IMG/VR virus record: IMGVR_UViG_3300037585_000579
Coordinates: 1 to 53,136 of that record
DNA from: a virus
Lineage: Duplodnaviria; Caudoviricetes
Direction: 5' to 3' (one strand)
Length of the DNA: 53,136 bases
Under the pieces are notes generated by a model. It saw only the letters and a program-made list of their open reading frames with translations. It did not search any database and was not told where the DNA came from. Made by a program: the position numbers and the translations under genes. Positions 1 through 36,355 of the stretch are shown in pieces (positions within the stretch are counted from its first letter, which is position 1; each line of letters opens with the position of its first letter).

Positions 1-2
1 GC

Positions 3-1496: not shown

Positions 1497-2175
1497 TATT
1501 AGTATAGATAATATTAACAGTAGACATAATCCATCAGATGATTATATCAATCTTGTTAAGATGTACGTGGAGAAGCACGATCAGGGAGAGGGTATGTTCA
1601 ATGGACGAAGCCTTCTTAAATTTGTAGACCTTATTAAACTATATTTGAAAAACAACGACTGTAAGTCTGTGCTTGACTATGGTTGTGGTAAGGGAGTGCT
1701 GTACACTGATAAGTTCTCAGAGATTACTGATGAGATTGACTGTCCTCTTCCTGAGTATTGGGAGTTGGATGAGTATGAACTCTTTGATCCCGGCTATAAA
1801 AAACACAGTAAGCTTCCCATACACAAAAAGGATGCTGTTATCTGTACAGATGTTCTTGAACATGTTGCAGAAGAAGACTTGGGCTGGGTAGTAGAAGAAA
1901 TATTTTCCTATGCAAAGAAGATTGTGTTTCTAAATGTAGCTTGCTTTGAAGCTCTAAAGGTTCTGCCTGATGGAAGGAATGCTCACATCTCTGTGTTCTC
2001 TCCTAATGATTGGATACAGATGTTAGCAGAAAAAAGTAGAAAGTTTAAACATCTAAAAATTTATCTCTTTGCTGATACAATGGAGAATCAAGATACTAAA
2101 ACTTTTTATACTGAAGGCTACAGGATAGATCAGTATCCCCGTGTTGTTAAACTTAAAAAAGAGGAGGAACAATAA
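1489..2175 (+). CDS. Class I SAM-dependent methyltransferase
   Basis: VLDYGCGKG SAM motif I and DAVICTDVLEHV; start moved to ATG 1489 (AAGGA SD). Confidence 0.85.
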   Translation: MSDISIDNINSRHNPSDDYINLVKMYVEKHDQGEGMFNGRSLLKFVDLIKLYLKNNDCKSVLDYGCGKGVLYTDKFSEITDEIDCPLPEYWELDEYELFDPGYKKHSKLPIHKKDAVICTDVLEHVAEEDLGWVVEEIFSYAKKIVFLNVACFEALKVLPDGRNAHISVFSPNDWIQMLAEKSRKFKHLKIYLFADTMENQDTKTFYTEGYRIDQYPRVVKLKKEEEQ

Positions 2176-2576
2176 TGTTAGGTATTGCAGAATCAGTTAT
2201 CGGTGTCGCCGGTAAAGTACTTGATAAGTTTGTAGAAGACAAAGACTTGAAGACTAAGTTAACGGCTGAACTTAATCAGCAGTTAGTATCACTGGACCTT
2301 GCTCAAGCACAGGCAAACATTGAACAAGCGAAACATCCCTCTATCTTTGTCAGTGGAGCAAGACCAGCTATCATGTGGGTGTGCTGCTTTGCTCTGGCAT
2401 GGCAGTTTATTTTTGCACCTGTTCTGTCTTGGGTTATTGTCACTTGGTATCCTATGATAACACTCCCTGTGTTAGAGACTAATGAATTGATCAGTCTGAT
2501 CATGGCACTTCTTGGGCTTGGCGGTATGCGTACAGCAGAGAAGTGGAAGGGTGTTGCCAGAAGTAATATGAAATAA
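2175..2576 (+). CDS. Holin (3TM / DUF3154-like family)
   Basis: GARPAIMWVC motif, hydrophobic helices, C-terminal LLGLGGMRTAEKWKGV. Confidence 0.75.
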   Translation: MLGIAESVIGVAGKVLDKFVEDKDLKTKLTAELNQQLVSLDLAQAQANIEQAKHPSIFVSGARPAIMWVCCFALAWQFIFAPVLSWVIVTWYPMITLPVLETNELISLIMALLGLGGMRTAEKWKGVARSNMK

Positions 2577-3055
2577 TGTTAAACGAAAAACAAGAAAACT
2601 TTGCCAAGGCTTACGTCTTACATCGTAATGCAACAGAAGCTGCCAAAGCCGCAGGATATTCAGACAAGTCAGCAGCTAATCAAGGTTATCGTTTACTACA
2701 AAATCAAGAAGTATTAGAGCGCATTGAAGATCTTGAGAAAGAACTTGAAACTAATATTAATGTTGTTGAAGAAATAGAAAATCAATATACCTTTGCAAAA
2801 GCAAACGGACATACCAACAGTGCTATTAAAGCTTTAGAACTTCTGTCTCGTATTCGAGGCGGTTCTGATGATGATCATATTAAAATTGATCAGGAAGGAT
2901 TAAAGACAGAGATTGCAAAAAATATAGATATTCTTGGTGAAGAAGAATTTTTACAAATTTTAAATCAAACTACTCTATTTAAAGACGTTATCCAAGAAGA
3001 AGAGGAAGAATACGAAAAAAATACTGACTTAGAAGAGGCTACAGTAGCCAACTAG
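2576..3055 (+). CDS. terS: Terminase small subunit
   Basis: N-terminal LNEKQENFAKAY...NATEAAKAAGYSDKSAANQGYRLL HTH signature. Confidence 0.8.
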   Translation: MLNEKQENFAKAYVLHRNATEAAKAAGYSDKSAANQGYRLLQNQEVLERIEDLEKELETNINVVEEIENQYTFAKANGHTNSAIKALELLSRIRGGSDDDHIKIDQEGLKTEIAKNIDILGEEEFLQILNQTTLFKDVIQEEEEEYEKNTDLEEATVAN

Positions 3056-3079
3056 ATACCTTCTGGTAGGGTACTATAT

Positions 3080-3110
3080 AAAAAAGGGAGCTACGAATGT
3101 AGCCCCCCTT
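3080..3110 (-). terminator. Intrinsic terminator ending the late (minus) arm at the convergence point
   Basis: Minus strand GGGGGCTAC-ATTC-GTAGCTCCC followed by TTTTTT. Confidence 0.75.
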
Positions 3111-3134
3111 GTAGCTCGTTACAGAGGATTTAAC

Positions 3135-3497
3135 TTATTTACCTCTTCTTTCGTTGGGAACAGGCGGATGTGATCCATTATGCATAGCATATAGTCTGTC
3201 ACAATCTTTTTGTAGTCTTTCAACATGCGTAACAATCTCTGCCAGTTGCATATGATCTCTTCTAAGATTTTCAGGACTTGCCATTTTAGCTAGGATGTTA
3301 ATCCTTTGTTCCTGAGTTTCATTAGAAGTGATTAACTTATCACTACGAGCATCCATCTTACGAAGACGTTGTTCAACATCATCCAGCTTTTCCACTAGCT
3401 GTCTAATCTGCATCTTGGCTACAGCACTGGCTCCTGCTACACTGAATAAGATACCAGCAATAGTTACGACCAGACGTATGTCGATTCCACCTTCCAT
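3135..3497 (-). CDS. Membrane-anchored coiled-coil protein (lysis-cassette associated)
   Basis: GGAGG SD before ATG 3497; one N-terminal TM helix followed by heptad repeats. Confidence 0.55.
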   Translation of the reverse strand: MEGGIDIRLVVTIAGILFSVAGASAVAKMQIRQLVEKLDDVEQRLRKMDARSDKLITSNETQEQRINILAKMASPENLRRDHMQLAEIVTHVERLQKDCDRLYAMHNGSHPPVPNERRGK

Positions 3498-3587
3498 ACT
3501 AACCTCCGTATTATACGTTAGCGGGGCCAACAATTATAGCTGTTAGTATTACTGCTATAAAAAATATAATAAATGGATGATATGTCA

Positions 3588-3878
3588 TTATTTAATTCTA
3601 TTCATTAGTGCTTCTTCAAGTTTAGGAAGAAGACGTATACCACAATACCCAACAATGAATGCTAAACCAATTGCAACCTGATGATTAAACTTAAAGTATC
3701 CCATAGCTGCTGGAATTAGAAATTCTGCTGCGATCCAACCCACAAGAACTGCAACTAAAATATCTTTAATAGCACCTAAGTTCCATTTCTTTTGTGTTAA
3801 TATATTTGCTACACCGCCACATCCCGAAGCGAAGATACAGCATAGCTTTCCACCGAATGTCATTATTGCCCATTCCAT
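3588..3878 (-). CDS. Small multi-TM protein, putative holin
   Basis: 2-3 hydrophobic segments, basic C-terminus, immediately downstream of the endolysin. Confidence 0.55.
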   Translation of the reverse strand: MEWAIMTFGGKLCCIFASGCGGVANILTQKKWNLGAIKDILVAVLVGWIAAEFLIPAAMGYFKFNHQVAIGLAFIVGYCGIRLLPKLEEALMNRIK

Positions 3879-3906
3879 AGTTTAGCCTCCTCAATAATGT
3901 TAAGTT

Positions 3907-4290
3907 TTACTTATAGCTCCAAAGCCACGGACGAGGATGGTGATCCCCATCTTCCATTGTATCAAGGTGCAGGAAGCGGCGTTCATACATGCCACGTTGA
4001 GACACACCTATACCCTTGAACTCATGTATGATAGCAAGACGTAGTAGTTTGAAAGCTTCGTGACCACCAATTACAATATCAGCAGCCCTGCCATAGATAT
4101 GTGCAGAGTTAGGTGAACCACCTATTGTAGTATTATATGCTATGTCCCTGTAGCCTGAAGATATGATCATTGGATTGTCATAGTCTCTTCTTAAACGAAT
4201 AAGCTTTTCCATAAACTCTTCGTCCATGTAGCACTCTCCAGTACCCTTGCAACGCATCTCATCTTCAGTAAAATGTTCCCAGTTAGTCAT
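3907..4290 (-). CDS. Peptidase M15 family endolysin
   Basis: SGYR, NSAHIYGRAADI (H-x6-D) and FLHLD Zn-binding motifs. Confidence 0.85.
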   Translation of the reverse strand: MTNWEHFTEDEMRCKGTGECYMDEEFMEKLIRLRRDYDNPMIISSGYRDIAYNTTIGGSPNSAHIYGRAADIVIGGHEAFKLLRLAIIHEFKGIGVSQRGMYERRFLHLDTMEDGDHHPRPWLWSYK

Positions 4291-4304
4291 TGTTACTCCT
4301 GTAC

Positions 4305-16979: not shown

Positions 16980-19844
16980 TTATTCATGGGTGCTTTTCAA
17001 AGTCTCAACGATTAATTTGCCATTATTATCCGCCCATTCAGATTCGATCATTTTAGCGTCTTTCCGTTCGCCAATAACCATCCAGCTAACCGTATCAGTG
17101 CAAGCATTATCCTGCGCCGTGATGGTGAGCACGTTGCCGGAAACAGAACCTTTCAGAGCGGTCCAGCCGTCTTCGTTCGAAGTGAAGCACTGCACGTCAC
17201 CGCAAAGAACCTCGAAAGTGCCGTCAGTCATGCCCGCCGCAGTATCAATGTTTACGTCCACTGTCCCGGCCACTAGATCGACACGGCCCCGGTAAATCAG
17301 GTCAGCTTGCGGACCTTCGATACTGCTGTGCAGCAGATAGTGCGTATCTGTCTTCGCTGGCAGCGGGTGGTCAATTCTAAAAGTCTTCGTGCCAGCAGTG
17401 AAAGTGCCAGCCACGTTGACTGTCCCGGCGGCGGCAATTGTCATGCGGCTGGTGTCGCCTTGCGTGCGGAAATACATAATCCCATCGGTATCTACAACAT
17501 CAAAAAACATGGATTTTCCACCCGTCGCACCAAGCTGAATAACTCCCATGTTGGTGCCGGAATTTCTGAAACGTACAACGCTTCCCGCATTAGTGCCTGT
17601 TGAATTAAGATTCATGTTCACAGTACCGGCTTCAACATCAACTGTACTTGCAAAGTGTGCTGCTCCTCCTACTGATAATGTAGAAGCAAGTGATACTGCT
17701 CCTGCCACAGTAAGCGTACTGTTAAGATCAACTGCACCCTCCAGTGATGTTGCTCCTGCAACTCTAAGTGTACCTCCAAGAACAGTATTACCACTTACCG
17801 AAACATCATCTTCAAACTCTGCCTTGCCTGTGGTTATAAGTGTACCACCAATAGAAGTATTACCAGCTATATTTACCGCACCTGATACTGATACTGCATC
17901 TTCAAAGATTGCTGCACCAGCTACTGTAACTGTGGATGCAAAGTGTGCTGCTCCTCCTACTGAAAGAGTTGATGCTAGTGATACCGCACCAGCTACTGTT
18001 ACAGTACTTCCAAAGTTTGCTGCACCTCCTACACTAAGAGTAGATGCAAGAGATACTGCACCACCTATCGTTACAGTTCCGCCTATATTAACATTACCTG
18101 ATACCGATACACTATCTTTAAACGTACCGGCACCTACTACAGTAACTGTGCTTGCTAGATTTGTTGCTCCTCCTACACTAAGAGTAGATGCAAGAGATAC
18201 TGCACCTGTAACACTGAGTGTACCACCAATAGAAGTATTACCGCCAACGGCTAAGTTACCACTGACAGATACATCTCCATCATAAGTAATTCCTCCAGCA
18301 GCAAAGAGTGTTCCACCAACTGAAACATTGCCACCGACATCCAGATTACCGCTTACAGACACGCTGTCTTCAAAAATGGCTTTCCCGGCCACTGTGACGG
18401 TACTGGCAAGATGGGTAGCCCCACCTACCGAGAGAGTAGAGTTAAGGCTCACAGCTCCTGCTATGGTCACTGTAGAGGCAAAGTTTGCTGCACCTCCCAC
18501 ACTAAGGGTTGATGCAAGGCTGACTGCCCCACCTACAGTTACTGTACCACCAAGATTTGTATTACCACTTACTGATACGTCATCATCAAATGTGGCGGCT
18601 CCTGTGGTCATCAGAGTTCCACCTACTGAGGTGTTACCTGCTATATCCACATTGCCTGATACTGATACACTGTCTTCAAATATTGCAGCCCCTGCTACCG
18701 TTACAGTACCACCTACAAATAAGTTACCACCTATCGTAGCATTATTTACAGAAATGTTGCCTTCTATTGATGCAGTAATTCCAGTAAGATTAGAACCATC
18801 ACCATAATATGCACTTGCACATACTCTTGCATTTGATGCCTGAATATTTGTACCAGCAATAGTTACTGTGCTTGCAAAATTAGCTGCTCCACCTACACTA
18901 AGGCTGGATGCCAGACTTACTGCGCCACCTACTGTAACTGTGCCGCCAAGATTAGTATTGCCGCTTACACTTACATCATCTTTAAATGTTGCTGCACCAA
19001 CAACATTGAAAGTACCGCTTACTGATACATTACCACCAGCATTTATATAACCTGATACAGAGATGTTTGTGGCAATACCAAGTTCAGCTTCCACATTTGT
19101 AAGATTAGAACCATCACCATAATAGTATGCAGCCGTTACATTACCAACTACATTTATATTTCCGCTTACTGATACATCATCAGCAAAGTTTGCAATGCCT
19201 CCTACACAAACAGAAGAAGCAATATCCAAACGTCCGCTAACTGATACATCATTATCAAACTCCGCTTTGGAGGTAAAGGTAGCTGCACCAGCCACTGCAA
19301 ATGTACCACCAACAGTTACATTATTTTTTAGGGCTGCTACATTCTCTACTGTAACTGTAGATTTAAAAGTAGCTGCACCAACAGCAGTTACTGTACTTTG
19401 TAGTTGTGTTGCACCTGACACAGTTACCGTACTGGCAAACTGTGCGGCCCCACCAACTGATAAAGTAGACTGTAGGTGTGCAGCACCAGCAACTGTGGCT
19501 GTACCGCCTACATAGAGATTACCGCCTACTGTGGCATTGCTTACTGATATATTACCAGCAATCGTTGCAGTTACACCACTAAGGTTTGAACCATCGCCAT
19601 AAAAAGAACTTGCACATACTTTATCATCTACATGAAGACTTCCATCCAAAGATACAGCACCACCGACACCCAACGCACCAGTGATCTGTACTGCATTAGT
19701 AGCTACCTTCAGAGCAGTGTTAGTTCCATCACCTGTCTGCACCGCTTTCAGGGAAGTATTTACACCAGTATTGCTAGTTGAAGAACTAACAAGTATAATC
19801 TGTTTATATGTATTTGATATTAGTTGACTTGTTAAATCGCTCAT
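16980..19844 (-). CDS. Long tail fibre with about 12-aa beta-repeats and a distinct C-terminal domain
   Basis: Dozens of VGGAVSLASTLS / FEDDVSVSGN repeats, three YGDGSNL(S/T) motifs, C-terminal KTFRIDHPL...HSSIEGP. Confidence 0.75.
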   Translation of the reverse strand: MSDLTSQLISNTYKQIILVSSSTSNTGVNTSLKAVQTGDGTNTALKVATNAVQITGALGVGGAVSLDGSLHVDDKVCASSFYGDGSNLSGVTATIAGNISVSNATVGGNLYVGGTATVAGAAHLQSTLSVGGAAQFASTVTVSGATQLQSTVTAVGAATFKSTVTVENVAALKNNVTVGGTFAVAGAATFTSKAEFDNDVSVSGRLDIASSVCVGGIANFADDVSVSGNINVVGNVTAAYYYGDGSNLTNVEAELGIATNISVSGYINAGGNVSVSGTFNVVGAATFKDDVSVSGNTNLGGTVTVGGAVSLASSLSVGGAANFASTVTIAGTNIQASNARVCASAYYGDGSNLTGITASIEGNISVNNATIGGNLFVGGTVTVAGAAIFEDSVSVSGNVDIAGNTSVGGTLMTTGAATFDDDVSVSGNTNLGGTVTVGGAVSLASTLSVGGAANFASTVTIAGAVSLNSTLSVGGATHLASTVTVAGKAIFEDSVSVSGNLDVGGNVSVGGTLFAAGGITYDGDVSVSGNLAVGGNTSIGGTLSVTGAVSLASTLSVGGATNLASTVTVVGAGTFKDSVSVSGNVNIGGTVTIGGAVSLASTLSVGGAANFGSTVTVAGAVSLASTLSVGGAAHFASTVTVAGAAIFEDAVSVSGAVNIAGNTSIGGTLITTGKAEFEDDVSVSGNTVLGGTLRVAGATSLEGAVDLNSTLTVAGAVSLASTLSVGGAAHFASTVDVEAGTVNMNLNSTGTNAGSVVRFRNSGTNMGVIQLGATGGKSMFFDVVDTDGIMYFRTQGDTSRMTIAAAGTVNVAGTFTAGTKTFRIDHPLPAKTDTHYLLHSSIEGPQADLIYRGRVDLVAGTVDVNIDTAAGMTDGTFEVLCGDVQCFTSNEDGWTALKGSVSGNVLTITAQDNACTDTVSWMVIGERKDAKMIESEWADNNGKLIVETLKSTHE

Positions 19845-20116
19845 ATTAGATTCCAATACTTATCTGTTGATCCCCATGCGGTACTGGCCTGACTCCATGT
19901 AATATTACGTCCACCTGTATCAGGACGAGGATTAAGAATAGCTGGATTATCTCTCACATCAGGCACATGATTTTGAGGATGGTTCTCCAAGTCAAACTGT
20001 CCTTCAAAATCTTGTGGGCATACCAACATCCCATAACTGTTCATTTTCATAATACGATGTGGATATACAAACCCACACGTATCGCACATAGCTAGTGCAT
20101 TTTTAGTACTTGCCAT
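19841..20116 (-). CDS. Conserved small Cys-containing virion-cluster protein
   Basis: CDTCGF...VCPQD..HPQ; translationally coupled. Confidence 0.6.
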   Translation of the reverse strand: MASTKNALAMCDTCGFVYPHRIMKMNSYGMLVCPQDFEGQFDLENHPQNHVPDVRDNPAILNPRPDTGGRNITWSQASTAWGSTDKYWNLI

Positions 20117-20790
20117 TAAACATACCGAAGTCTTGGTGTAACTTTCATCACTGCTGTTTCTCTATTCGCTAGTAAAGCTCTGGAAAGTTTTTCTTCATAA
20201 ATAGATTTTAACATTTGAATTCTTGGCATATCTATACCGGGTCTTTTTACTGCCATATTATAAGCAAGACCGCAGGTTAAACACGGTAGAAAACTTTTAT
20301 GTACATCAGCATTTTGTATTGCAGATTTATCTACATCTTGTAACTCACTGACAATTTCCATTTTAAGAACATCTGTAGAATTATCAGGTAAAGGCCAAAC
20401 AGATAATGTAGGATTATTTACTCCTCTACGAAGAGAATACTGGCTTGGTCTTCCTGTTTGTTTTTTATTAGGAATAAGCAAATACTCTTCAGGGGTAATG
20501 CGAGTTAATTGAAGATCTGTATTATCTCTATTTAAAACAACTTCAAGTGCATCTATAGTCGATGAATCTAAAGAATAAGATGTAGTACTTGCAACAACTG
20601 TAACTGAAGAGACAGAAGTACTCCAAAGAAGTACACCCATATTCTGCCAATCTTTAAGCATAAGATTTATAGAACGACGAGCAGACGCAGGTTCATGACC
20701 AAGGGTCTGTTCTCCCCCAATCATTTCTATTGCTTCTTGTATAACCTCATCTATATCAAGGTTAAAATCATATGTACCTGATACTGCCAT
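20116..20790 (-). CDS. Head-tail adaptor / tail tubular protein A-like
   Basis: SARRSINLMLKDWQN, GRPSQY and VWPLPD motifs; position. Confidence 0.65.
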   Translation of the reverse strand: MAVSGTYDFNLDIDEVIQEAIEMIGGEQTLGHEPASARRSINLMLKDWQNMGVLLWSTSVSSVTVVASTTSYSLDSSTIDALEVVLNRDNTDLQLTRITPEEYLLIPNKKQTGRPSQYSLRRGVNNPTLSVWPLPDNSTDVLKMEIVSELQDVDKSAIQNADVHKSFLPCLTCGLAYNMAVKRPGIDMPRIQMLKSIYEEKLSRALLANRETAVMKVTPRLRYV

Positions 20791-20915
20791 TATTCCATAT
20801 CCACCGTAGAGTCACCCCATGCAGAATGTTTACAAGATTCACACCTACATTCACAACTTTCTTTGTCACAATGACAACAACAATTACACTCTTGACATTT
20901 TATTATATTACTCAT
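20790..20915 (-). CDS. 41-aa Cys-rich metallothionein-like peptide (not in ORF track)
   Basis: MSNIIKCQECNCCCHCDKESCECRCESCKHSAWGDSTVDME; ATGA overlap with the upstream stop and TAATG overlap with the downstream start; AGGA SD. Confidence 0.75.
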   Translation of the reverse strand: MSNIIKCQECNCCCHCDKESCECRCESCKHSAWGDSTVDME

Positions 20916-21310
20916 GTCCTATACCTTTTTGTTTTAGCTGCTATTTTTTTTGGCTGCTTCACGAACTGCTTCCCGGCAGCAGTCCCTTTTCTCTTTGCTT
21001 TGGTGGTCGCTGCATATTCCTTTGACGACAGGGACTTGATTGCTTTTTCCGGTAGATAACGCTCTCCGGTTTTGCTGGAGGGTTTGCCTGACTTCGTGCG
21101 CCATTTTTGTTTGCTCCACTTTGAAAGTTTATTAGTAGACTTTTTCTTACCGCTGTATGATCCACCAGAATCTTTGTAATACTTAACAGCAAGCTGCATA
21201 GCTCTGGCAGAGTGCTTACCACCCATTTTACGCTTTGCTCTGGCCTTTGCCGCTGCCCATTTTTTAGGGTCACGTTTAGTAGCTGTGCCGCCTTTCTTAC
21301 GTAGAATCAT
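20912..21310 (-). CDS. Highly basic small protein
   Basis: Lys/Arg-rich; KWSKQKWRTKSGKPS..TGERYLP; coupled to neighbours. Confidence 0.75.
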   Translation of the reverse strand: MILRKKGGTATKRDPKKWAAAKARAKRKMGGKHSARAMQLAVKYYKDSGGSYSGKKKSTNKLSKWSKQKWRTKSGKPSSKTGERYLPEKAIKSLSSKEYAATTKAKRKGTAAGKQFVKQPKKIAAKTKRYRT

Positions 21311-21468
21311 TATCGACCTACTTTTTTCATGGCTTTCTTATGAGCAGCCCCAAAAGTTTTTCCTTTTCTCATTGCCGTTTTCATACTAGACATGTGTTTT
21401 TTAGTATGATGTTTAGAATGTTTTTTAAGTGTAGTCTTTTGTCTATTTGTAAGTTTTTTAGGTGCCAT
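21310..21468 (-). CDS. 52-aa Lys/His-rich protein (not in ORF track)
   Basis: MAPKKLTNRQKTTLKKHSKHHTKKHMSSMK...KKVGR; TAATG coupling at both ends. Confidence 0.75.
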   Translation of the reverse strand: MAPKKLTNRQKTTLKKHSKHHTKKHMSSMKTAMRKGKTFGAAHKKAMKKVGR

Positions 21469-21767
21469 TAACATCTCCATCTTTTACGAGCTTGTCTTAG
21501 TCTGCTATTAGGATTCTTAGCGGCCTTTGGAAACTTCTTCATTTGTCCAGCAGACCTTGCACAGTACGACTTACGTCTTGCTGCACGTTTGCCTGTAGGT
21601 TTCTTTTCAGTTACCGCAGTCTTTAGTTTAGAGCCGGGATTCTGCCTACGATATTTAGCCACACCCTTCTTAGTCATGCCAGCACCAGACTTGGTAGGAC
21701 GCTTCATGCCCCTGCCAATAGTCATGCCCTTCATGTTACTGGGCTTTCTTTTTTTCTTTACTGCCAT
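21468..21767 (-). CDS. Highly basic small protein
   Basis: RRKSYCARSAGQMKKFPKAAKNPNSRLRQARKRWRC; AGGA SD. Confidence 0.75.
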   Translation of the reverse strand: MAVKKKRKPSNMKGMTIGRGMKRPTKSGAGMTKKGVAKYRRQNPGSKLKTAVTEKKPTGKRAARRKSYCARSAGQMKKFPKAAKNPNSRLRQARKRWRC

Positions 21768-21775
21768 AACTATTC

Positions 21776-22429
21776 CTATGGTTTTATTCTAGCTTCAAGT
21801 AAGGACGTAAGACCAGATGTTCTCTGTTTAGCTGCCCCTCTCTGTGCAGTTTCTCTTTCTAAAGCAGAGGGCATTTCTTTAAGATTTTCTTTAGTTGCAA
21901 GTTCAGGCAACATACTTCTCATCTCTTTATCTGCTAACAAATCTAATATACTAAGACCTGCTATAACCGGACCTGATACAGCAAGTGTTGGGGGAAATGC
22001 TGCTCCTAGTCCTGCTGCTAAACCTGCTAGTCCCATGCGTTTAGCCCCAAATGTACCAAGCTGTCTTACAATAGCTTTAGTTGCTTGTTTATTTTTAGCT
22101 TTATCTAATGCTTGTTTTGCTTTCTTACGTCCTTTTGGTGTAAACTTACGACTAACATTAACAGCACCTTTACCACCCTGAAGAGCTAAAGATCCAAGTC
22201 CTGCAAGTTCTATAGCAGTTACAATATTTTTAACAGCTTCAGGACCAAGTTGCTCTCTACCATAGTCTCCCAAAGGATTTTCCATACCCACTGTAACACG
22301 GCCTACATCCAAAGCAGATTGTGTTACAGGAGAATAAGGATCTTGAAAAGCTGGATACATCAACTGAGATTGATTAACCGGACCTCTTTGATCTAGCAGT
22401 CCTCTATTATCTTCTGCAAACCTTTCCAT
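21776..22429 (-). CDS. Hypothetical virion-cluster protein
   Basis: 217-aa ORF with an Ala/Gly/Leu hydrophobic stretch. Confidence 0.65.
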   Translation of the reverse strand: MERFAEDNRGLLDQRGPVNQSQLMYPAFQDPYSPVTQSALDVGRVTVGMENPLGDYGREQLGPEAVKNIVTAIELAGLGSLALQGGKGAVNVSRKFTPKGRKKAKQALDKAKNKQATKAIVRQLGTFGAKRMGLAGLAAGLGAAFPPTLAVSGPVIAGLSILDLLADKEMRSMLPELATKENLKEMPSALERETAQRGAAKQRTSGLTSLLEARIKP

Positions 22430-28947: not shown

Positions 28948-28990
28948 AATTACCTCCGTTGTGTACGAAACAAACGCTTTAACGTACTGC

Positions 28991-29004
28991 TATTATAACA
29001 TACT
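28991..29004 (-). promoter_or_regulatory. Late-arm extended -10 promoter motif
   Basis: AGTATGTTATAATA; one of three near-identical copies. Confidence 0.7.
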
Positions 29005-29007
29005 ATT

Positions 29008-29433
29008 TTAATAAGAACCTATTCCAAGGTTAAAAGTTGGATCAAGATCTTTAGGATCTTCTACTTTCATGATAATTTGATCATCAAAGAGAAGGATAAG
29101 TCTTGTTCCTTTGTAAAATAATTTAGTTCCTGCATGCTTACCGTAACATACATAATCACCTACACTACACCAAGCACCGCTTGGAAATTTATCTTTATCC
29201 ATATAAGCCAAGTTTCCCAGAGAAAGTACCTGTGCTACGGTTGTTAAGTAAGACATATCCTCTCTTGTGGAGTCTGGTATAAAAATACCACCCTTAGTTA
29301 CACTTTTTACAGAAATAGGTCTTACTAAGACATGAAATCCCGGTAGATCGGGAAGTGGTGATGGATTAGGCGTTTCTTCTTCTGTGATCCATAAATCATT
29401 TTTTACGGAAGCACCTAAGTTTACCTGTTGCAT
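29008..29433 (-). CDS. groES: Co-chaperonin GroES-like protein
   Basis: PGFHVLVRP, TKGGIFIPD, VGDYVCYGKHAG and LLFDDQI. Confidence 0.85.
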   Translation of the reverse strand: MQQVNLGASVKNDLWITEEETPNPSPLPDLPGFHVLVRPISVKSVTKGGIFIPDSTREDMSYLTTVAQVLSLGNLAYMDKDKFPSGAWCSVGDYVCYGKHAGTKLFYKGTRLILLFDDQIIMKVEDPKDLDPTFNLGIGSY

Positions 29434-29631: not shown

Positions 29632-29795
29632 TACTTTTCTGAACTCTTTTCGTCTGCTTTCCAAGAGTAATCATCCCACTCATTAAGCGCACTGCGAACA
29701 TTACGACCACCCGTAATATCCTGTGCGTATGCATCGCCAAAACTTTTGTTAGTATCCTTTACATGTTCAGGATAACCTTTACCTTTATTCATCAT
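29631..29795 (-). CDS. 54-aa hypothetical protein (not in ORF track)
   Basis: MMNKGKGYPEHVKDTNKSFGDAYAQDITGGRNVRSALNEWDDYSWK...; AGGAG SD in the end of the portal gene. Confidence 0.65.
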   Translation of the reverse strand: MMNKGKGYPEHVKDTNKSFGDAYAQDITGGRNVRSALNEWDDYSWKADEKSSEK

Positions 29796-32394
29796 CGTCT
29801 TCTCCTTCTACTAATTTTGCTAAAAGTGTTTCAGCATGTCTTTGATTTGTGTTTTCTTCTTTTGTATTAAGTTCCATTAATTTCGAAAGGTTCTTCATTT
29901 CAGTTAGTTTAAGTTCTTTTTCAGTAACCTGCTGTTCTTTTAAAACCTTATGTAAAAGTTCTTGAGCTTTCTGGCTGTCCGTAGTTTCACTTTTATTTTG
30001 TTCTAAAAGAAGTTTTGCCAACAGATCAAGAGACTTCATTGTTTCTTTACTAAGCCGGTCTGCTTCAGACTTCTCTCTCTTAAAGTCTATATTAGACATA
30101 TTTTTATTCATGTCAAGTAGCTGAGCATTTTCTTTAAGATCCATTTCTTTTACTTTCAAACTAAACTCGGCATTCTGTACAGCAGCATCTATTTTTATTT
30201 TTTCCTTTTGAAGTTCAACCTTTGTAGTTTCTAAAGCTACTAGCTGTTGTTCAGGAGACTCTACTTTACCCATTGCTTGATTAGCATTAAGTATTTGTTG
30301 TGCAGCTTCTCCCATAATCATTTCTAATGAACTAGGGTTCTGAGCAACTTCTGGTCCCATTTGTTCCATACCTGCTCTAGTTATGCCATTAATCTGTTCT
30401 TGATATTTCATTATAGAATGTTCTTGTATGTTCGATTCCAAGACAGGTTTTAATCTATTCATTATTGGATTGGCACCGTTCATGGGATCTTGCATATAAG
30501 ACATCTTAACTTGAATATGTGCATCATGATTCTGTCCGGGGAATGCGGCAATGGGCATTCCTTTTGTAGCTGCCATAATATCAGAGACAGGATCTAAAGG
30601 CTGCGGTTCCAGTTTTGGTGGTAAGATTTCTTCAAGATTTGGCATGTTAGCTGCATGTAGAATAGTACGGTTTAATGCTTCCAGATTAAACATGCCGGGA
30701 GGAGACTGTTGTGCCATCTGTAATGCCATATTTGCCAGCATCATACGATGAGCATTACTTGGAATATTGGGATCACTGACAGGAATAATATCTATACGGC
30801 CATCAAAGTCCTTTTTAAGGATACTACGACTTTCATAAGGAACATCATATGGATATTCATCAGGAAGGTAATCATAATCAATACGAGCAAGAATCCTGAA
30901 TTCATCTTTCTGAGATTTATGCAGACGTTTATGAATAGCTGAGAAGAACTTACTACTAGCCTCAAGAAGTGCCATAGTAGTCCCAACAGGTCCATAGGAG
31001 GCAGCATCGGAAATAACCTGTTCTGTGCTGTCCGCAAACTTCTGTCCAGCAGTAGCTACAAAATTCAACATCTGGAAGAGAGTTTGGGAAGGCTCTTTAT
31101 AGGGAAGGGGAACAATAGCCTTTGACAAATCTACTCCAATTGCCTCAACCTCCTTGAACTCGCCGGGGGCGATTGGCGCATTATCGCCAACCATCCTTAC
31201 GCCTTTAGCCTTAAACCCTCCCGGTAAATTTGCAAATTGCCCTGCGTCTACTAAAGATCTCATTGCGGCAGTGGCAGTCATAGTCAAATTACCAAGGAAG
31301 TGTATAAGACCTAACCCGTAGAAACCAAAGCCCGGAACGAACTTGTAATGTACAAAATGATTTTGTTTTACTTTCGTTGGGTCGTCCTGTTTGTAATTTC
31401 TACGAATACTTAATACTTGTCGGCTTTTTTCTTCAACCGTAACAATATATGGAAGTGCTTCATCATCGTCTTCCAGATTTAAATAACAATGTTGTTCCAG
31501 CAGGACATACTGAGGATCAGTATCATAGCTGGGAGTCAGTCCTAGAATATTATCCAGCTTCTCAGTAAATGTTGAAACATTAAACTGTGAGGGGGACTCA
31601 ATATCTAAATCTCTATAAACACCAGCAAATATATCTTTTTGAAACTCTACCGGACTTTTATAAATTATATGGGTCGCTCTCTCAGCGCCCCGCAAATCTG
31701 AAGCAAAATAAGAAACATAAAACTGATCAATAGGTATAAATTCTGAAACAGGTCGTTTAAGAACTGAACTATAATAAACCTTTTTAAAAGCAGAACCGAT
31801 TAACGGGAGATGAAACAACATCCTTTCAAACTCATCAAAGTATTCAGGCATCTGTTCCGTAAGTTGATAGTTCATAAAGTTTTGAACACGATTGGCTTGC
31901 TGTTCTTTTTCGGGAGTGCCTTTTCCTAGAACATTAGCTTTGACAGGACCACTGGAAGGAAAGAGTTCGGCTGTGGCCTTTGCTTGAAACTTAACAGCAG
32001 ATTCTATTAAAAGAGGATGTACAGCAGTACAGGCTCCCTGAAAAGGATCACTACCTTCTTCTACTTTTAAACCAAGCAGATCAAAGCCACGTTCAAACAT
32101 GGACTCCCAATCTGCACGGGAATCTTTGTCGGCTGTAAAGTTATCTATAACATCATTACCAATTTCTCTAAGAACATCTTCTTCGACATCCTCTGCAAGA
32201 TTAGCATACCACTCTTCAATTTCTTTATCAGGAGACATCTCAATTTCTTGAGAAAAATCTACCATAACACCACCATCATCAGGATCAATTTCAAAAGTTG
32301 CTCCCATAGAAGCCTGTTGTTCAACATTTGGAAGAGTTACTACATTATCTGTATTATTACCCAGCGCTTCAAAAGGATTTTGTTCAATTGCCAT
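29785..32394 (-). CDS. Portal protein
   Basis: 869 aa; VHPLLIESAVKFQA, GSAFKKVYY, PGFGFYGLGLIH and PYKEPSQTL; C-terminal coiled coil (P22-like barrel). Confidence 0.9.
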   Translation of the reverse strand: MAIEQNPFEALGNNTDNVVTLPNVEQQASMGATFEIDPDDGGVMVDFSQEIEMSPDKEIEEWYANLAEDVEEDVLREIGNDVIDNFTADKDSRADWESMFERGFDLLGLKVEEGSDPFQGACTAVHPLLIESAVKFQAKATAELFPSSGPVKANVLGKGTPEKEQQANRVQNFMNYQLTEQMPEYFDEFERMLFHLPLIGSAFKKVYYSSVLKRPVSEFIPIDQFYVSYFASDLRGAERATHIIYKSPVEFQKDIFAGVYRDLDIESPSQFNVSTFTEKLDNILGLTPSYDTDPQYVLLEQHCYLNLEDDDEALPYIVTVEEKSRQVLSIRRNYKQDDPTKVKQNHFVHYKFVPGFGFYGLGLIHFLGNLTMTATAAMRSLVDAGQFANLPGGFKAKGVRMVGDNAPIAPGEFKEVEAIGVDLSKAIVPLPYKEPSQTLFQMLNFVATAGQKFADSTEQVISDAASYGPVGTTMALLEASSKFFSAIHKRLHKSQKDEFRILARIDYDYLPDEYPYDVPYESRSILKKDFDGRIDIIPVSDPNIPSNAHRMMLANMALQMAQQSPPGMFNLEALNRTILHAANMPNLEEILPPKLEPQPLDPVSDIMAATKGMPIAAFPGQNHDAHIQVKMSYMQDPMNGANPIMNRLKPVLESNIQEHSIMKYQEQINGITRAGMEQMGPEVAQNPSSLEMIMGEAAQQILNANQAMGKVESPEQQLVALETTKVELQKEKIKIDAAVQNAEFSLKVKEMDLKENAQLLDMNKNMSNIDFKREKSEADRLSKETMKSLDLLAKLLLEQNKSETTDSQKAQELLHKVLKEQQVTEKELKLTEMKNLSKLMELNTKEENTNQRHAETLLAKLVEGEDDDE

Positions 32395-32416: not shown

Positions 32417-34375
32417 TTATAAAGTTGGCGGTATTTCACTAAGCATTATAGCTTCATCTAGTGTAAGAGGTTCTTCAGCTAATGAACTAGAAATAGGATC
32501 ACGTAACATTTCAAGTGTAGGATCAGACCTTGGTGTTCTATAATTTTTAAATGCTGCCTCCGCTGTTGCAACAGGACCGCTTTGTTTATCTTTATCCATA
32601 ACTGTTTGAACAGCTTCTATAAACTCTTCTTCTGTTGTTGCATTTTGAATTGCTAAATAATCTGTTGTAGTAATTGTACTTCCCGGCTGTTGTATCATAT
32701 TTGCTACTGTGTTTAAAGTATTATTTATAATATCTGGAGATATATTAGTAGACCTAGTTAATGTATCAGAAGGAGGTACTGTATTATAAGCATCTAAGCC
32801 CACATTCATCATGGACATAAGTTTATTTGTATCTGCATCTGATAGCGGTCTTTGGCTAGGAACAAGCTGTATTTCAACATCTCTTCTTACATCTTCTGGT
32901 ACAGCAGGATCTAAATAATCTTCTGCAGGAAGGCCACCAATATCTGTTATATTTTCCGGTCCGGTAGTATCAGGCAAGTTAGGATTAAAACTAATTCCCG
33001 GCAGACCAGCGATATTAGGATCAGCCATTGCTATTGCAGGATCATAAAGGGCTGATGCTTCAATCATATTTTCTGGAACTAAGTCGTCAACTGTTGGTTC
33101 AGGTGTATTATAAAAACCCTTTTCATTAAAATACTCTTGATTTGGAATACCAAAAAGTTCTGAAATTCTTTCTGCAATATCTTTGTTTTCTGGAATGACT
33201 GACGTTAAATCGTCTTTAACGTCCTTTAACACTTTCTGAGCAGCATTGGCTGGGTCTTCTATAGGTGTGCCAACAATATTTTCATTTACTTCAGTGATTA
33301 TATCTTTAATAGCGTCCGAACCAAATATGTTACTTATCATCATTGGATTAGACAGACTCATCGCCATCGGAAAGCCCTGTACAATACCCTCCATTGCCTT
33401 CATGTCCATGTAATCTGAAACACGATTTGCATTCATATTTTTATCTAAACCATAAATTCCGGGATCAATATTTTCTTTTTCAAAAATACTTCCAACTGTT
33501 TTTGAAGAGTCTTTTTCAACTTCATCCAAGGCCATCCTTAATTTTCCTGCCTGAGTCCCATCATGAGCCATAAATAAGTCTATATAGTTATTATATTGCT
33601 CTTTGGTCATGCCTTCTGGAGCTTGTACTTCAAAATCTCCTCTAATACCAAGACCCCATGTACGATCAAAACCCCCTCTTTCCAAAGAGGAAATATAACC
33701 AGTGCCATCTCTAATACCATTTTGTTGCATTGTACCAAGGATTTGATTAGAGGACATGCTTTGAGCAGCCCCTCTAATCGCATCGTCATACATTTTTTTA
33801 TATTCAGGATTTGTTTTAGCAGCCAAAAGAACAGGATCTGATAACATCTCCAACGGTCTGAACGGTTCTTTATATTTTTTAGTTGCGGTAAACGGGTCTA
33901 TTGGAGTCTCAGGAACAAATAAACCTCGAGGATCGAACTGTGCCTCACTTGGGTTTGGATTACTGAGCGCATCAAAGCTGGCCTGTTCTACATCCATTTC
34001 ATCTTGCGTTCGAGCGCCACCAAATTCCGCCCAACCTGCTTGTTGCGCAGCGAGGTCAGCTAGGCCTTGGATGTCAATTGCACCATAACCACCAATACTA
34101 TCCTCGTCCTCCCCACCCGGTCCGGGACCGGGGCCACCGGGTACTCCAGAATCACCTATACCTCCACTACCTTCGCCCTTCCCGGCAGCTCCACTACCTT
34201 TGCCCGCCCCGGCAGCCGCTTCCATACCAGCAAACCCGCCCGTGGACTCACCTTCAGCACCCTCACCACTACCGGCACCCTCAAAACAAAAATGTCTCTG
34301 CTCGTAAGGATTTAGACCTAGATAGTCTAGCTGTTCATAAAGATTATGTCTAGATTTTCTATAACAATGTAGCAT
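32417..34375 (-). CDS. Acidic Gly-rich protein, candidate acyltransferase substrate / virion protein
   Basis: ATG 34375 with AAGGA SD overlaps the end of the acyltransferase; short leader ending HFCF, then a Gly-rich segment with two GKG. Confidence 0.7.
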   Translation of the reverse strand: MLHCYRKSRHNLYEQLDYLGLNPYEQRHFCFEGAGSGEGAEGESTGGFAGMEAAAGAGKGSGAAGKGEGSGGIGDSGVPGGPGPGPGGEDEDSIGGYGAIDIQGLADLAAQQAGWAEFGGARTQDEMDVEQASFDALSNPNPSEAQFDPRGLFVPETPIDPFTATKKYKEPFRPLEMLSDPVLLAAKTNPEYKKMYDDAIRGAAQSMSSNQILGTMQQNGIRDGTGYISSLERGGFDRTWGLGIRGDFEVQAPEGMTKEQYNNYIDLFMAHDGTQAGKLRMALDEVEKDSSKTVGSIFEKENIDPGIYGLDKNMNANRVSDYMDMKAMEGIVQGFPMAMSLSNPMMISNIFGSDAIKDIITEVNENIVGTPIEDPANAAQKVLKDVKDDLTSVIPENKDIAERISELFGIPNQEYFNEKGFYNTPEPTVDDLVPENMIEASALYDPAIAMADPNIAGLPGISFNPNLPDTTGPENITDIGGLPAEDYLDPAVPEDVRRDVEIQLVPSQRPLSDADTNKLMSMMNVGLDAYNTVPPSDTLTRSTNISPDIINNTLNTVANMIQQPGSTITTTDYLAIQNATTEEEFIEAVQTVMDKDKQSGPVATAEAAFKNYRTPRSDPTLEMLRDPISSSLAEEPLTLDEAIMLSEIPPTL

Positions 34376-34769
34376 ATTGCAATGTCCTTCTTTTCCCCTT
34401 CTGCCTAAAGTACTGTACTTTTCCCGTAACACCAGCAGATTTAAGTCTATTTATTAACTGTGAGTCTTTACTTCTCATCTCTGCAAATACTCCGCCATAA
34501 GGAGCTATACAGTCTACTATCCAAGGTATAACTCCACTATTCCAATCTTCTGCTTGTAATTTTTTTCTTTGTGATGCATATTCATCAGAAATGTTTTGAG
34601 ATAGAAATGTCCACGTTGCAAAAAATAAAGGAGTTTTCTTATTAGATACAATAACATATTGATTAGATTTTACAGCAGGTAAAATTGTATTTACCATATT
34701 ATATATTGTATATTTTCTGTAGAGCGGTACTGTATTTAAAATATATATTATTCTTTCAAGATCAGTCAT
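34359..34769 (-). CDS. Toxin-activating lysine acyltransferase (HlyC/CyaC/RtxC family)
   Basis: ILPAVKSNQY, PLFFATWTFLS and L.AEDWNSG..WIVDCIAPYG align with HlyC-family motifs. Confidence 0.85.
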   Translation of the reverse strand: MTDLERIIYILNTVPLYRKYTIYNMVNTILPAVKSNQYVIVSNKKTPLFFATWTFLSQNISDEYASQRKKLQAEDWNSGVIPWIVDCIAPYGGVFAEMRSKDSQLINRLKSAGVTGKVQYFRQKGKRRTLQYATLL

Positions 34770-34774
34770 TCTAC

Positions 34775-34788
34775 TATTATAACACACT
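34775..34788 (-). promoter_or_regulatory. Late-arm extended -10 promoter motif (leaderless)
   Basis: AGTGTGTTATAATA; TATAAT ends 7 nt before ATG 34769. Confidence 0.7.
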
Positions 34789-36332
34789 TATGCTGCGAAG
34801 TTCCAATAAGTTGAATTCTTTTTCTTTGGCTCGTCTTCCCATTCAGGATCTTCAGGATGTGACAGATGCCATGAGTCCCGTAAATAATGTACAGCCATAA
34901 CCATAGCATCTACCTGATCATCGTGTGCAGCATTGGGAAACTTTAATAACTCGTCTATTAGAGTATCTCCCCACTTCTTCCCCTTGGGTATCCACAGTCT
35001 TCCAGCCTCTATCAAAGGACTTGCAGAATAAACTCTGGATACCTTATCCCTGTCAGGCATATACTCTCGGACAGGCAAACCAGACCTTCGCATATCCTGT
35101 ATCAGAGACTGTCCACTTGCTTTCTTTTCTATAATACAAATATCGGGATGGTGTCTATTATAGAGTTCATGTGCTTTACGCCGTAACTCTGGATACTCAA
35201 ACCTTTCTCTTACATTTCCCAGAAGAATCAGATTAGAAACATAGTCTTCATAACCATCCTCTTCTTCCTGAAACATAGAAAAGATACCCCATGTTTGTAT
35301 AACACTATAATCAGCCGTAGTTTTAGTAGAGAAAGCAGTATCATATGTTTGTATTACAAAGTCACAGGCCGGAGGATCATCATTTTTCCATTCCTGTAAC
35401 CATTGTTTTTTTATTAAACCTCCCTCTTCCGGGGTAGGATCTTGCATATACAATGAGTTCCAATAACGACTACCATTGCTTGCCTTGATCTCATTCTCAT
35501 CTACTCGTAATAGTTTATCTGACTTCCATTCAGGAAAGTAACTTCCTCCCGGTTCCATATCAAGTAATTCAGCCGCTTCTTCATCTAACCATGCAGGTAT
35601 ACGAATAACTTCCCAAGGGAGTGTCTCATACTCATCCATCTCCTGCTGTTGTTTTAGTAACCAACCACACAGATCATCATAATGATAACGAGTATTAATA
35701 ATAACTATAGAACCATTAGGCATAATACGTGTGCGTAAGCCCGCAGGATACCACTCTTTAACATAACGGCGTCCCGCCTCAGAGTAAGAATCCTCCTCAG
35801 ACATCACATCGTCAAGGATAGCTACGTGAGCACCACGTCCTGCAATCTGGGATCTAACACCAGCAGCGTAATACATACCACCATGATTTGTCTTCCACTT
35901 ACCAGCAGCCCGGACATCACTTCGAAGGGAGACACCCTTGAAGATGTTCGTAAACTGTTCTGTATTTACAATATCTCTGACACTACGTCCGAAATCACTG
36001 GATAACTGATCACTATGGGAGACAGTAAGTATCTCATGTTCAGGATTACGTCCAATATACCATGCTGGAAAGAGCTTTGAACATATCACAGACTTGGAAG
36101 AACGTGGTGGCAGAAAGACCATAAGTCTTTTTATTTCACCAGATTCTAACTTTTTTAATTTATTTGATATCACTTCAATATGTTTGCCCATACGCCAATC
36201 AGACACAAGAGTAGGGGCCACTAAACGCACAAAGGTCAGAAAATCATTTTTACTATTTTCTAAAACTTGTGTGGCTAGTAAACTATTAAGTTTTACAAGC
36301 GATACTAGGGAGTCTTTATCATTTTCTATCAT
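34788..36332 (-). CDS. terL: Terminase large subunit
   Basis: LPPRSSKS Walker A, AILDD Walker B, TRYHYDDL, QTYDTAF..ADYS and HDDQVDA nuclease motifs. Confidence 0.95.
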   Translation of the reverse strand: MIENDKDSLVSLVKLNSLLATQVLENSKNDFLTFVRLVAPTLVSDWRMGKHIEVISNKLKKLESGEIKRLMVFLPPRSSKSVICSKLFPAWYIGRNPEHEILTVSHSDQLSSDFGRSVRDIVNTEQFTNIFKGVSLRSDVRAAGKWKTNHGGMYYAAGVRSQIAGRGAHVAILDDVMSEEDSYSEAGRRYVKEWYPAGLRTRIMPNGSIVIINTRYHYDDLCGWLLKQQQEMDEYETLPWEVIRIPAWLDEEAAELLDMEPGGSYFPEWKSDKLLRVDENEIKASNGSRYWNSLYMQDPTPEEGGLIKKQWLQEWKNDDPPACDFVIQTYDTAFSTKTTADYSVIQTWGIFSMFQEEEDGYEDYVSNLILLGNVRERFEYPELRRKAHELYNRHHPDICIIEKKASGQSLIQDMRRSGLPVREYMPDRDKVSRVYSASPLIEAGRLWIPKGKKWGDTLIDELLKFPNAAHDDQVDAMVMAVHYLRDSWHLSHPEDPEWEDEPKKKNSTYWNFAA

Positions 36333-36341
36333 TCTATGTAG

Positions 36342-36355
36342 TATTATAACATACT
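36342..36355 (-). promoter_or_regulatory. Late-arm extended -10 promoter motif upstream of terL
   Basis: AGTATGTTATAATA, identical to the copy at 28991-29004. Confidence 0.7.

Follow-up and report, generated by a model that had tools for sequence, protein, structure and literature searches.

Why would a marine podophage keep a gene of the HlyC family, known for enzymes that act on RTX toxins, among the genes of its own structural module? The question is raised by IMG/VR virus record IMGVR_UViG_3300037585_000579, which was analysed here over its whole length of 53,136 nt (the window) and which is an HTVC023P-like marine podophage with a completeness estimate of 90%. A preliminary description made from the sequence had pointed to a HlyC-family gene between the genes for the large terminase subunit (terL) and the portal, and matches to PF02794, phrog_38 and phrog_1216 agree with this placement. 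The enzyme gene overlaps a second gene, which encodes a protein of 652 amino acids (aa) that we call X. In this paper we describe the conservation of this gene pair, the enzyme, and a short leader at the N-terminus of X. With slightly better than even confidence, we propose that the enzyme modifies this leader module, at Cys30 or Lys7, that X is a virion or ejection protein, and that the modification is probably a fatty acylation drawing on acyl-acyl carrier protein (acyl-ACP) of the host.

We know of no description, in the literature searched or elsewhere, of a phage-encoded enzyme that lipidates a particle protein of the same phage, and no study of a phage toxin-activating acyltransferase (TAAT) was found in that literature. 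The sole mention of a phage HlyC found there is a label in the legend of a genome map of HTVC023P-type phages, 'HlyC, toxin-activating lysine-acyltransferase', which goes undiscussed in the available text (bioRxiv 10.1101/2019.12.14.876532, 2019). In the main text of an account of 80 HTVC023P-type genomes (PMC9599517), the words HlyC, acyltransferase, hemolysin, RTX, lipid and portal have no occurrences.

Results

Conservation of the gene pair

Viral loci with the enzyme (n=79) were found by alignment of diverse phage enzymes, and the genes downstream were scored by script. In viral contigs that hold close relatives of the enzyme (85% to 55% identity), the gene order is in all cases terL, enzyme, X, portal. 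Over the whole set, a downstream gene overlaps the enzyme gene or begins no more than 60 nt past its stop in 76 of the 79 loci, and the other three end at a contig edge. The overlap measures 17 nt in 48 loci, 1 nt in 11, 4 nt in seven, 26 nt in five and 74 nt in one (L033, for which the script chose an earlier ATG), and the gaps are 9 nt (L074, L075), 11 nt (L090) and 60 nt (L079). A Cys-Phe dipeptide stands at residue 19-33 of the partner in 61 of the 76 (in one of these at residue 52, with an earlier ATG). The 40 residues after it consist to 75-97% of Gly, Asp, Glu, Ser, Ala, Pro, Thr and Asn, and the 61 partners have 39 distinct N-termini. The preliminary description had proposed a survey for two features in the N-termini of such downstream genes: the leader with Cys-Phe and Gly is there in these 61, and a conserved Gly-Lys is not.

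The pairing holds equally when it is approached from the leader. A DNA scan for the leader of the window's type (group A) gave nine contigs, and the enzyme is directly upstream in 9/9. A broader leader scan gave 30 stretches, 26 of them with the enzyme directly upstream (hmmsearch E <= 1.5e-30); the remaining four are two stretches cut within 10 nt of a contig end and two chance DNA matches outside open reading frames (ORFs), and every leader-bearing gene that could be evaluated has the enzyme just upstream (26/26). Conservation of the pair in related phages, on which the preliminary description had staked its idea, was looked for and found in both directions, with enzymes down to about 21% identity. 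CdiC, a TAAT with a substrate encoded beside it, suggests asking whether the modified residue is conserved only beside the enzyme. Here the pairing is strict, and relatives that lack the enzyme lack the leader too; Cys30-Phe31 is invariant, and Lys7 is invariant in groups A and B only.

A terL homologue lies upstream of the enzyme in 52 of the 79 loci, and in 49 (groups A-D) X is followed, at a distance of 0-5 nt, by the start of a portal homologue. In more distant phages the pair is situated between portal and capsid genes (L073), among tail genes (L086), or next to genes for a member of a 'DNA ejection protein' family (phrog_4287) and for a protein with an endolysin domain (L074). With the pair at varied positions within the structural module, the gene that always accompanies the leader gene is that of the enzyme, not the portal. 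The enzyme-free interval between terL and portal is occupied in HTVC027P (gp41/gp42) and DSL-LC04 (an 825-aa protein) by dissimilar proteins with no leader. HTVC023P and 023Pt_psg01, judged by annotation only, have no such small gene after terL.

Three further observations concern these loci. An extra gene of about 210 aa is present between terL and the enzyme in 13 of them, in a gap of 654-657 nt (L026-28, L032, L034, L035, L037, L039-42, L044 and L045). The one copy scanned, at 3427-4059 (-) of L012, has in Pfam only a sub-threshold match of the cupin type (DMSP_lyase, E 0.012, 15.8 bits, cut-off 27), and the extra gene could encode a second modifying enzyme of the module. Partners that start with Met-Gly (MGSES..., MGAAAGPGG...) occur in L068, L072-L078 and L090. 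The enzymes beside them belong to no fewer than three unrelated groups, and such starts bring to mind sites of N-terminal Gly acylation. Finally, one contig classed as viral (L079, 4761-10193) has a 206-aa HlyC homologue followed by a 1584-aa Met-Ser protein with 10 RTX nonapeptide stretches and Big_9. This is a classical toxin-type pair, and the contig may therefore be bacterial DNA or carry a phage-borne RTX protein.

The partner protein and its leader

X was characterised in the preliminary description as an acidic protein with a leader that ends in HFCF and a Gly-rich tract, and this account stands: the isoelectric point (pI) of the 70-kDa protein is 4.22, the leader is residues 1-31, and the tract that follows is 41% Gly. 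There are only two Cys (C4 and C30). The start at ATG 34375 is preceded by a GAAGGA box and is the same in the gene callers and in all homologues. No segment of X is hydrophobic (the best 19-residue stretch has a Kyte-Doolittle mean of 0.83), and X matched no family in Pfam or PHROG. A protein atlas look-up gave, at best, two unnamed viral clusters (0.76 and 0.75), which is below the meaningful level. An AlphaFold2 (AF2) model of the whole protein shows scattered helices and is mostly disordered, with a mean predicted local distance difference test score (pLDDT) of 43.8.

The leader is the part of X that is kept. A database search with residues 1-60 returned 31 proteins (376-845 aa), each of which has the leader. 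When 31 diverse Cys-Phe leaders were aligned, M1, E25, C30 and F31 were invariant and N22 nearly so, which gives the core motif N-x-[Y/M]-E-x4-C-F-x-G. The X proteins of close relatives (426-794 aa) can be aligned only over the first 60 residues or so and, in some cases, over parts of the body. Between the window and loci L003-5 there are six differences in codons 1-39, while the rest of X has diverged past recognition. Five of the six are synonymous and the other exchanges Arg for Lys; it follows that the leader is translated and that purifying selection on it is strong.

Two X variants with the leader (P0019 and P0020) end in an SLT lytic transglycosylase domain at residues ~733-825 (E 7.7e-12 in P0019), and such a domain is typical of ejected particle proteins, after T7 gp16. 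A role of X in the virion or in ejection would fit this domain, the place of the gene in the structural module and the neighbours annotated for ejection. Many X variants (among P0016-P0045, e.g. P0036, P0029 and P0026) share the C-terminal motif ...IYG-x6-8-LL-x3-5, and the C-terminus of the window's X (32417-32500) and of its closest kin has a different ending. From these sequences X looks like a mosaic, in which the leader, and often the tail, is fixed and the body that comes between is exchangeable. A search for short forms of X gave seven matches, all on contigs of at most 5.1 kb that are probably cut. A prediction of the complex of the enzyme with X residues 1-60, both supplied as alignments, gave a score of 0.02 (mark 0.32) and informs neither way.

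The acyltransferase and its active site

The ORF of the enzyme extends from GTG 34787 (34787..34359, -) and has 142 aa from there; ATG 34769, which gives 136 aa, is the start matched by all eight full-length homologues. The preliminary description had suggested a search with the HlyC profile, and PF02794 matched the enzyme with E 1.9e-21 and a score of 76.7 bits (cut-off 25); the match spans positions 4-97 of the 127 in the profile. A search of the whole genome found it again with PF02794, at 76.3 bits. The enzyme also matches phrog_20210, a family of unknown function (E 3.9e-17), and, by sequence, ApxC (PDB 4whn; E 1.9e-14). The AF2 model, built on 29 phage homologues, has a pLDDT of 93. When it was used as a Foldseek query, the top three matches were chains of 4whn (E 1.2e-8 to 1.4e-7, TMq 0.69) and the next had E 0.12; the other matches are weak ones to GNAT-type or N-terminal acetyltransferases (E 0.1-1). 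By profile, fold and catalytic Asp, the enzyme is a true member of the TAAT family. It is basic, with a pI of 9.83. A tblastn search of the phage collection gave no match for the enzyme or for X, and one database source labels a homologue of the enzyme 'hemolysin-activating ACP:hemolysin acyltransferase'. One family representative, P0047 (412 aa), has two TAAT domains in tandem within a single protein.

In the alignment with ApxC, SSPLHRKW is opposite TVPLYRKY and FIDWIAP is opposite IVDCIAP (WIVDCIAP in the enzyme), in agreement with the preliminary description, according to which the SPLH motif reads VPLY and the Asp of WIVD is kept. The catalytic His of the family (HlyC His23, ApxC His24, CdiC His37) is thus replaced by Tyr17 in the window's enzyme. 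Tyr17 is invariant in 11/11 close homologues, and so are Asp86 and Arg122, the latter of which we take to be the equivalent of ApxC Arg121. To follow these positions further, an exhaustive HMMER search for relatives of the enzyme, which gave 659 at E <= 1e-3, was used, and the best 150 were aligned with the query (n=151). The His column of this alignment has His in 121 sequences, Tyr in 18, a gap in five, Arg in two, Glu in two, and Phe, Trp and Lys in one each. The Asp is kept in the displayed motif of each of the 18 Tyr sequences. In the Asp column there are 129 Asp, 14 Glu, seven Asn and one Ser, and the C-terminal Arg column has Arg in 103/151.

Representative phage enzymes (n=29) have His in 23 cases and Tyr in six (the four of the window's group A, L074 and L090), with the Asp column (Glu in L074) and the Arg column both at least 90% conserved. 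Group A and L090 each have His-bearing enzymes as their closest relatives, and the replacement by Tyr has therefore arisen several times and is tolerated. On these comparisons Tyr17 is probably not a sign of decay. A Tyr hydroxyl acts as proton donor in many GNAT enzymes. The altered chemistry suggested in the preliminary description would be a trait of the window's clade and not of the system, since sister clades with near-identical leaders keep the His.

Candidate acceptor residues

The preliminary description had placed the acylation either on Gly-Lys lysines of the flexible tract, K59 and K66, or on a Cys exposed by processing. The two lysines are unique to the window genome: they are absent from the 83%-identical P0024, from L003-5 and from all other homologues at that place, and were rejected as a conserved site. 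The sole Lys that is invariant over the whole of X in the close family (23 sequences) is K7, and it lies inside the leader. The invariant Lys residues are K6 and K7 in group B (14 sequences) and K6 and K16 in groups C/D (11 sequences). Among the four sequences of leader class E there is none, and in five of the seven loci of this class neither the leader nor the 40 residues that follow contain a Lys. The Cys-Phe is universal among the 61 leader-bearing partners, and a Cys exposed by processing is still a candidate.

On this evidence Cys30 and Lys7 would be about equally likely acceptors. The N-terminal amine would be a third possibility, because Met-Gly starts are found with at least three unrelated enzyme groups. 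Self-cleavage at Phe-Cys, of the Hedgehog or intein kind, and an internal thioester domain were also considered and set aside, as no folded domain follows the Cys.

Gene order and promoter-like motif

The TerL of the window shares 41% identity with its counterpart in Pelagibacter phage HTVC027P and 39-41% with those of HTVC023P, 023Pt_psg01 and DSL-LC04. On the minus strand the genes run terL, the HlyC-like gene, X, portal, two small genes, a GroES-like gene, three genes without known function, the major capsid gene, and tail and fibre genes (Table 1). The GroES-like co-chaperonin gene comes close after the portal, likewise in HTVC023P and DSL-LC04.

Neither RTX repeats (PF00353) nor a carrier protein (PF00550, PP-binding) gave a match anywhere in the 53,136-nt record. 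With no phage carrier protein, a host acyl donor would be needed. The preliminary description had stated that the window has no RTX toxin and no type I secretion system (T1SS). The first part holds for the whole record. The second holds within the scanned ORFs, as no T1SS families were present among those at 4305-36332, no search by name was made, and the ORFs in 1-4304 and 36.7-53 kb were unscanned.

A motif of the extended -10 type, TGTTATAAT, is found at 34784-34776, 6 nt ahead of the ATG of the enzyme, and the TATAAT before the enzyme gene is kept in relatives (L003-5). The 14-mer TGTTATAAT-A-x-TA-x, with at most two mismatches, has three sites in the window, all on the minus strand: directly before the start of terL (36338-36351), directly before the start of the enzyme gene (34771-34784), and about 40 nt before the next ATG, that of a 311-aa gene (28987-29000). 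In a shuffle control, 9 of 100 shuffles reached three or more matches to the 14-mer, and a generic promoter scan was at background level, with 25 found against 23.3 expected. The enzyme gene's own promoter motif, reported in the preliminary description, is accordingly present and conserved and, being equalled by 9/100 shuffles, is not statistically established. With the spacing of the motif at this gene, the transcript start would fall at or beside the ATG.

Table 1. Coordinates of the features of the gene pair and its flanks in the window
Feature	Position	Strand	Basis or remark
HlyC/TAAT-family acyltransferase gene, 136 aa + stop	34359..34769	-	PF02794, phrog_20210, ApxC, AF2 fold
Codon Tyr17 (136-aa numbering), place of catalytic His (ApxC His24)	34719..34721	-	ApxC alignment
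Codon Asp86, catalytic Asp (equivalent of ApxC Asp93)	34512..34514	-	ApxC alignment
Codon Arg122, conserved C-terminal Arg (R128 of 142-aa form)	34404..34406	-	Invariant in close family
Partner gene X, 652 aa	32417..34375	-	ATG 34375, overlaps enzyme gene
Enzyme/X gene overlap, 17 nt (translational coupling)	34359..34375	-	Also 17 nt in 48/79 viral loci
X leader module, residues 1-31, MLHCYRKSRHNLYEQLDYLGLNPYEQRHFCF	34283..34375	-	Kept in 31/31 database homologues
Codons Cys30-Phe31, leader core	34283..34288	-	Invariant in 31/31 diverse leaders
Codon Lys7 of X	34355..34357	-	Sole Lys invariant across whole protein, close family (23 sequences)
Gly/acidic flexible tract, residues 32-100 of X, 41% Gly	34076..34282	-	Contains GAGKGSGAAGKGEG (K59, K66)
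TGTTATAATAGTAG, extended -10-like motif	34771..34784	-	Ends 1 nt before ATG; TATAAT hexamer ends 6 nt before ATG
terL, terminase large subunit (flank)	34788..36332	-	phrog_38 E 2.4e-110
Portal (flank)	29785..32394	-	phrog_1216 E 5e-33
GroES-like co-chaperonin gene	29008-29433	-	phrog_3188 E 1.8e-14

Discussion

The explanation that we favour starts from the family membership and fold of the enzyme, its kept Asp and Arg, the pairing of the two genes in both directions and the conservation of the leader. Enzyme and X would be produced from overlapping, translationally coupled genes, and the TAAT-fold enzyme, turned on a protein of the phage's own structural module, would recognise the leader core N-x-Y-E-x4-Cys-Phe-x-Gly of X. 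It would then move an acyl group, most likely a fatty acyl from host acyl-ACP, onto a residue of the leader module. This residue may be Cys30, which would carry the group in thioester linkage or would be modified as the N-terminal Cys left once the leader has been cut off, or it may be Lys7, by canonical chemistry. In the direct-attack model for TAATs, Asp deprotonates the acceptor Lys and His protonates the leaving ACP thiolate (PMC8510554); in the window's enzyme Asp86 would stay the base, and Tyr17 would replace His as proton donor to the leaving thiolate. Held on its long flexible Gly/acidic tether, the lipid would be a membrane anchor for the soluble, acidic X, in assembly or, more likely, at entry as an ejected protein. 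A narrower form of this proposal, which we put forward as doubtful, is that a large group of abundant marine podophages acylate the invariant Cys of Cys-Phe, not a Lys, and that other phage groups acylate the N-terminal Gly of proteins of the Met-Gly-Ser-Glu type.

Several points count against lipidation of X by the enzyme. Acyl transfer, its donor and its acceptor residue are all inferred from the genes, and so is the presence in the particle of X; its model is poor, and the position that it has in L073 could also be that of a scaffolding protein. Of the dyad that defines the family, one half, the catalytic His, is missing from the window's enzyme. No single Lys is conserved across the leader classes, and class E has no invariant Lys, so that acylation of Lys, the known chemistry of the family, cannot explain all classes. 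For acylation of Cys we know of no precedent in the TAAT family, and no leader-removing protease was recognised among the scanned ORFs of the window. Fifteen of the 76 partners are without the Cys-Phe leader (nine start with Met-Gly, four with Met-Ser and two otherwise). Lastly, the 79 loci include many near-duplicates and genes co-evolve with the phage phylogeny, and the counts therefore overstate independence.

A short conserved N-terminus joined to a hypervariable body is the pattern of a targeting sequence, and the internal proteins of T4 have targeting or processing signals of such a kind. The leader might then be a capsid-targeting or processing signal read by the portal, the procapsid or a protease, with an enzyme that acts elsewhere and merely shares the operon. 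The abutment of X on the portal in groups A-D and the invariant Glu five residues ahead of the Cys agree with this. It is nevertheless improbable in our judgement, given that the leader never occurs without the enzyme (26/26 evaluable genes and 9/9 contigs), that the pair moves together away from the portal, that enzyme-free relatives are without the leader, and that no protease family is seen among the scanned ORFs of the window. The two roles are also not exclusive, as a targeting leader could double as the docking site of the enzyme. Translational coupling, for its part, suits a chaperone and its client as well as an enzyme and its substrate, and X is disordered. A TAAT homologue that transfers nothing could thus be a pseudoenzyme or chaperone, an assembly factor that binds the leader and hands X to the portal or procapsid, and the replaced His of the window's clade would suit such a role. 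We give this very little credence, however: His is present in 23/29 phage enzymes, the Asp and Arg columns are each conserved to at least 90%, and the Tyr clade itself has an invariant Asp86 and Arg122. Moreover Tyr, and not random residues, recurs in 18/151, which looks like a functional replacement, and the His-to-Ala mutants of ApxC (H24A) and CdiC (H37A) are partly active (PMC8510554).

The enzyme could also modify the N-terminal module of X in a different way, by attaching a short acyl or aminoacyl group, or through a Cys-dependent thioester, with cleavage or cross-linking at the Phe-Cys bond. The universal element is indeed Cys-Phe, not Lys. The fold falls within the wider set of GNAT-like acyl-CoA transferases, by the weak Foldseek matches, and 9 of the 15 partners without Cys-Phe start with Met-Gly, which recalls N-terminal rather than Lys modification. 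But the only strong relatives in structure and sequence are acyl-ACP-dependent TAATs, the conserved Arg and high pI would fit the binding of acidic ACP, and the tract after the Cys is Gly-rich and disordered, with no domain capable of self-cleavage. We therefore regard a chemistry of this kind as unlikely, and fatty acylation of the leader module remains the explanation that we prefer.

By profile, by its sequence match to ApxC and by its predicted fold, the enzyme is of one kind with HlyC, CyaC and ApxC. It keeps their catalytic Asp and C-terminal Arg, and its gene likewise adjoins the gene of the presumed substrate. At 136 aa it is shorter than the crystallised ApxC chains (168-170 residues), and the last quarter of the Pfam profile is unmatched. 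Whereas those systems have the His, an RTX substrate and Gly-Lys sites, the window has Tyr, no RTX protein and no conserved Gly-Lys. Here, in a virus, the enzyme has as its neighbour an acidic, disordered protein of a phage structural module with a Cys-Phe leader.

In function, the closest precedent comes from class IV contact-dependent inhibition loci, whose TAAT, CdiC, has been co-opted for a non-RTX substrate encoded beside it and puts 3-hydroxydecanoate on Lys1467 of CdiA (PMC8510554). The lipid of CdiA is proposed to aid engagement of the target outer membrane, and the substrate region is largely unstructured (PMC8510554). Lys1467 comes after another Lys (PMC8510554), and in the leaders of groups A-D residues 6 and 7 are both basic, one or both of them being Lys. 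CdiC keeps the His and Asp (His37, Asp107), and the Lys that it acylates is internal to a secreted protein of very large size (PMC8510554). Unlike the CdiC system, that of the window has an N-terminal leader with an invariant Cys-Phe, includes one class without a conserved Lys, and is viral.

A looser likeness is with gp6.7 of T7, which was said in the preliminary description to start Met-Cys-Phe, as its sequence does. It has Gly- and acid-rich stretches and is encoded upstream of the portal, with three genes between. This small core protein is ejected with gp14 and builds the outer-membrane part of the entry channel, in an account whose available text has no occurrence of 'acyl' or 'Cys' (PMC11784390). 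If X were cut before Cys30, it would begin with Cys-Phe and so resemble the start of gp6.7. The two proteins have no detectable homology, and their likeness, one of two residues, is a lead only; no TAAT gene was found in the 18800-22300 stretch of the T7 genome.

The N-terminally lipidated penetration proteins of non-enveloped animal viruses are particle proteins that are released at entry and carry the lipid at a flexible N-terminus, and Hedgehog is N-palmitoylated on an N-terminal Cys that a Gly-rich stretch follows. The enzymes of these lipidations are NMT and MBOAT, which are unrelated to TAATs, and the hosts are unrelated as well. The analogy of these proteins with X is one of mechanism only; the nine Met-Gly partners recall N-myristoylation sites.

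How short-tailed phages pass proteins and DNA through the Gram-negative envelope is an open question, to which a tethered lipid anchor, if true, would offer a simple answer of a new kind. Phages with the module are common: there are 79 viral contigs in one collection, many of them HTVC023P-like genomes of 53-61 kb from a group that infects SAR11-type bacteria. It is also small, comprising a 136-aa enzyme and a 31-residue tag, and, if the proposal is true, a short, genetically encoded lipidation tag could serve as a tool. Because Tyr and His clades carry the same leader, a comparison of the two would amount to a natural experiment on what the catalytic His does. The substrate range of TAATs would, if the proposal is true, be wider than RTX toxins and CdiA. 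Should the acceptor prove to be the Cys or an N-terminal Gly, these phages would have a counterpart of the lipidated penetration proteins of animal viruses, and the chemistry of TAATs would reach beyond Lys.

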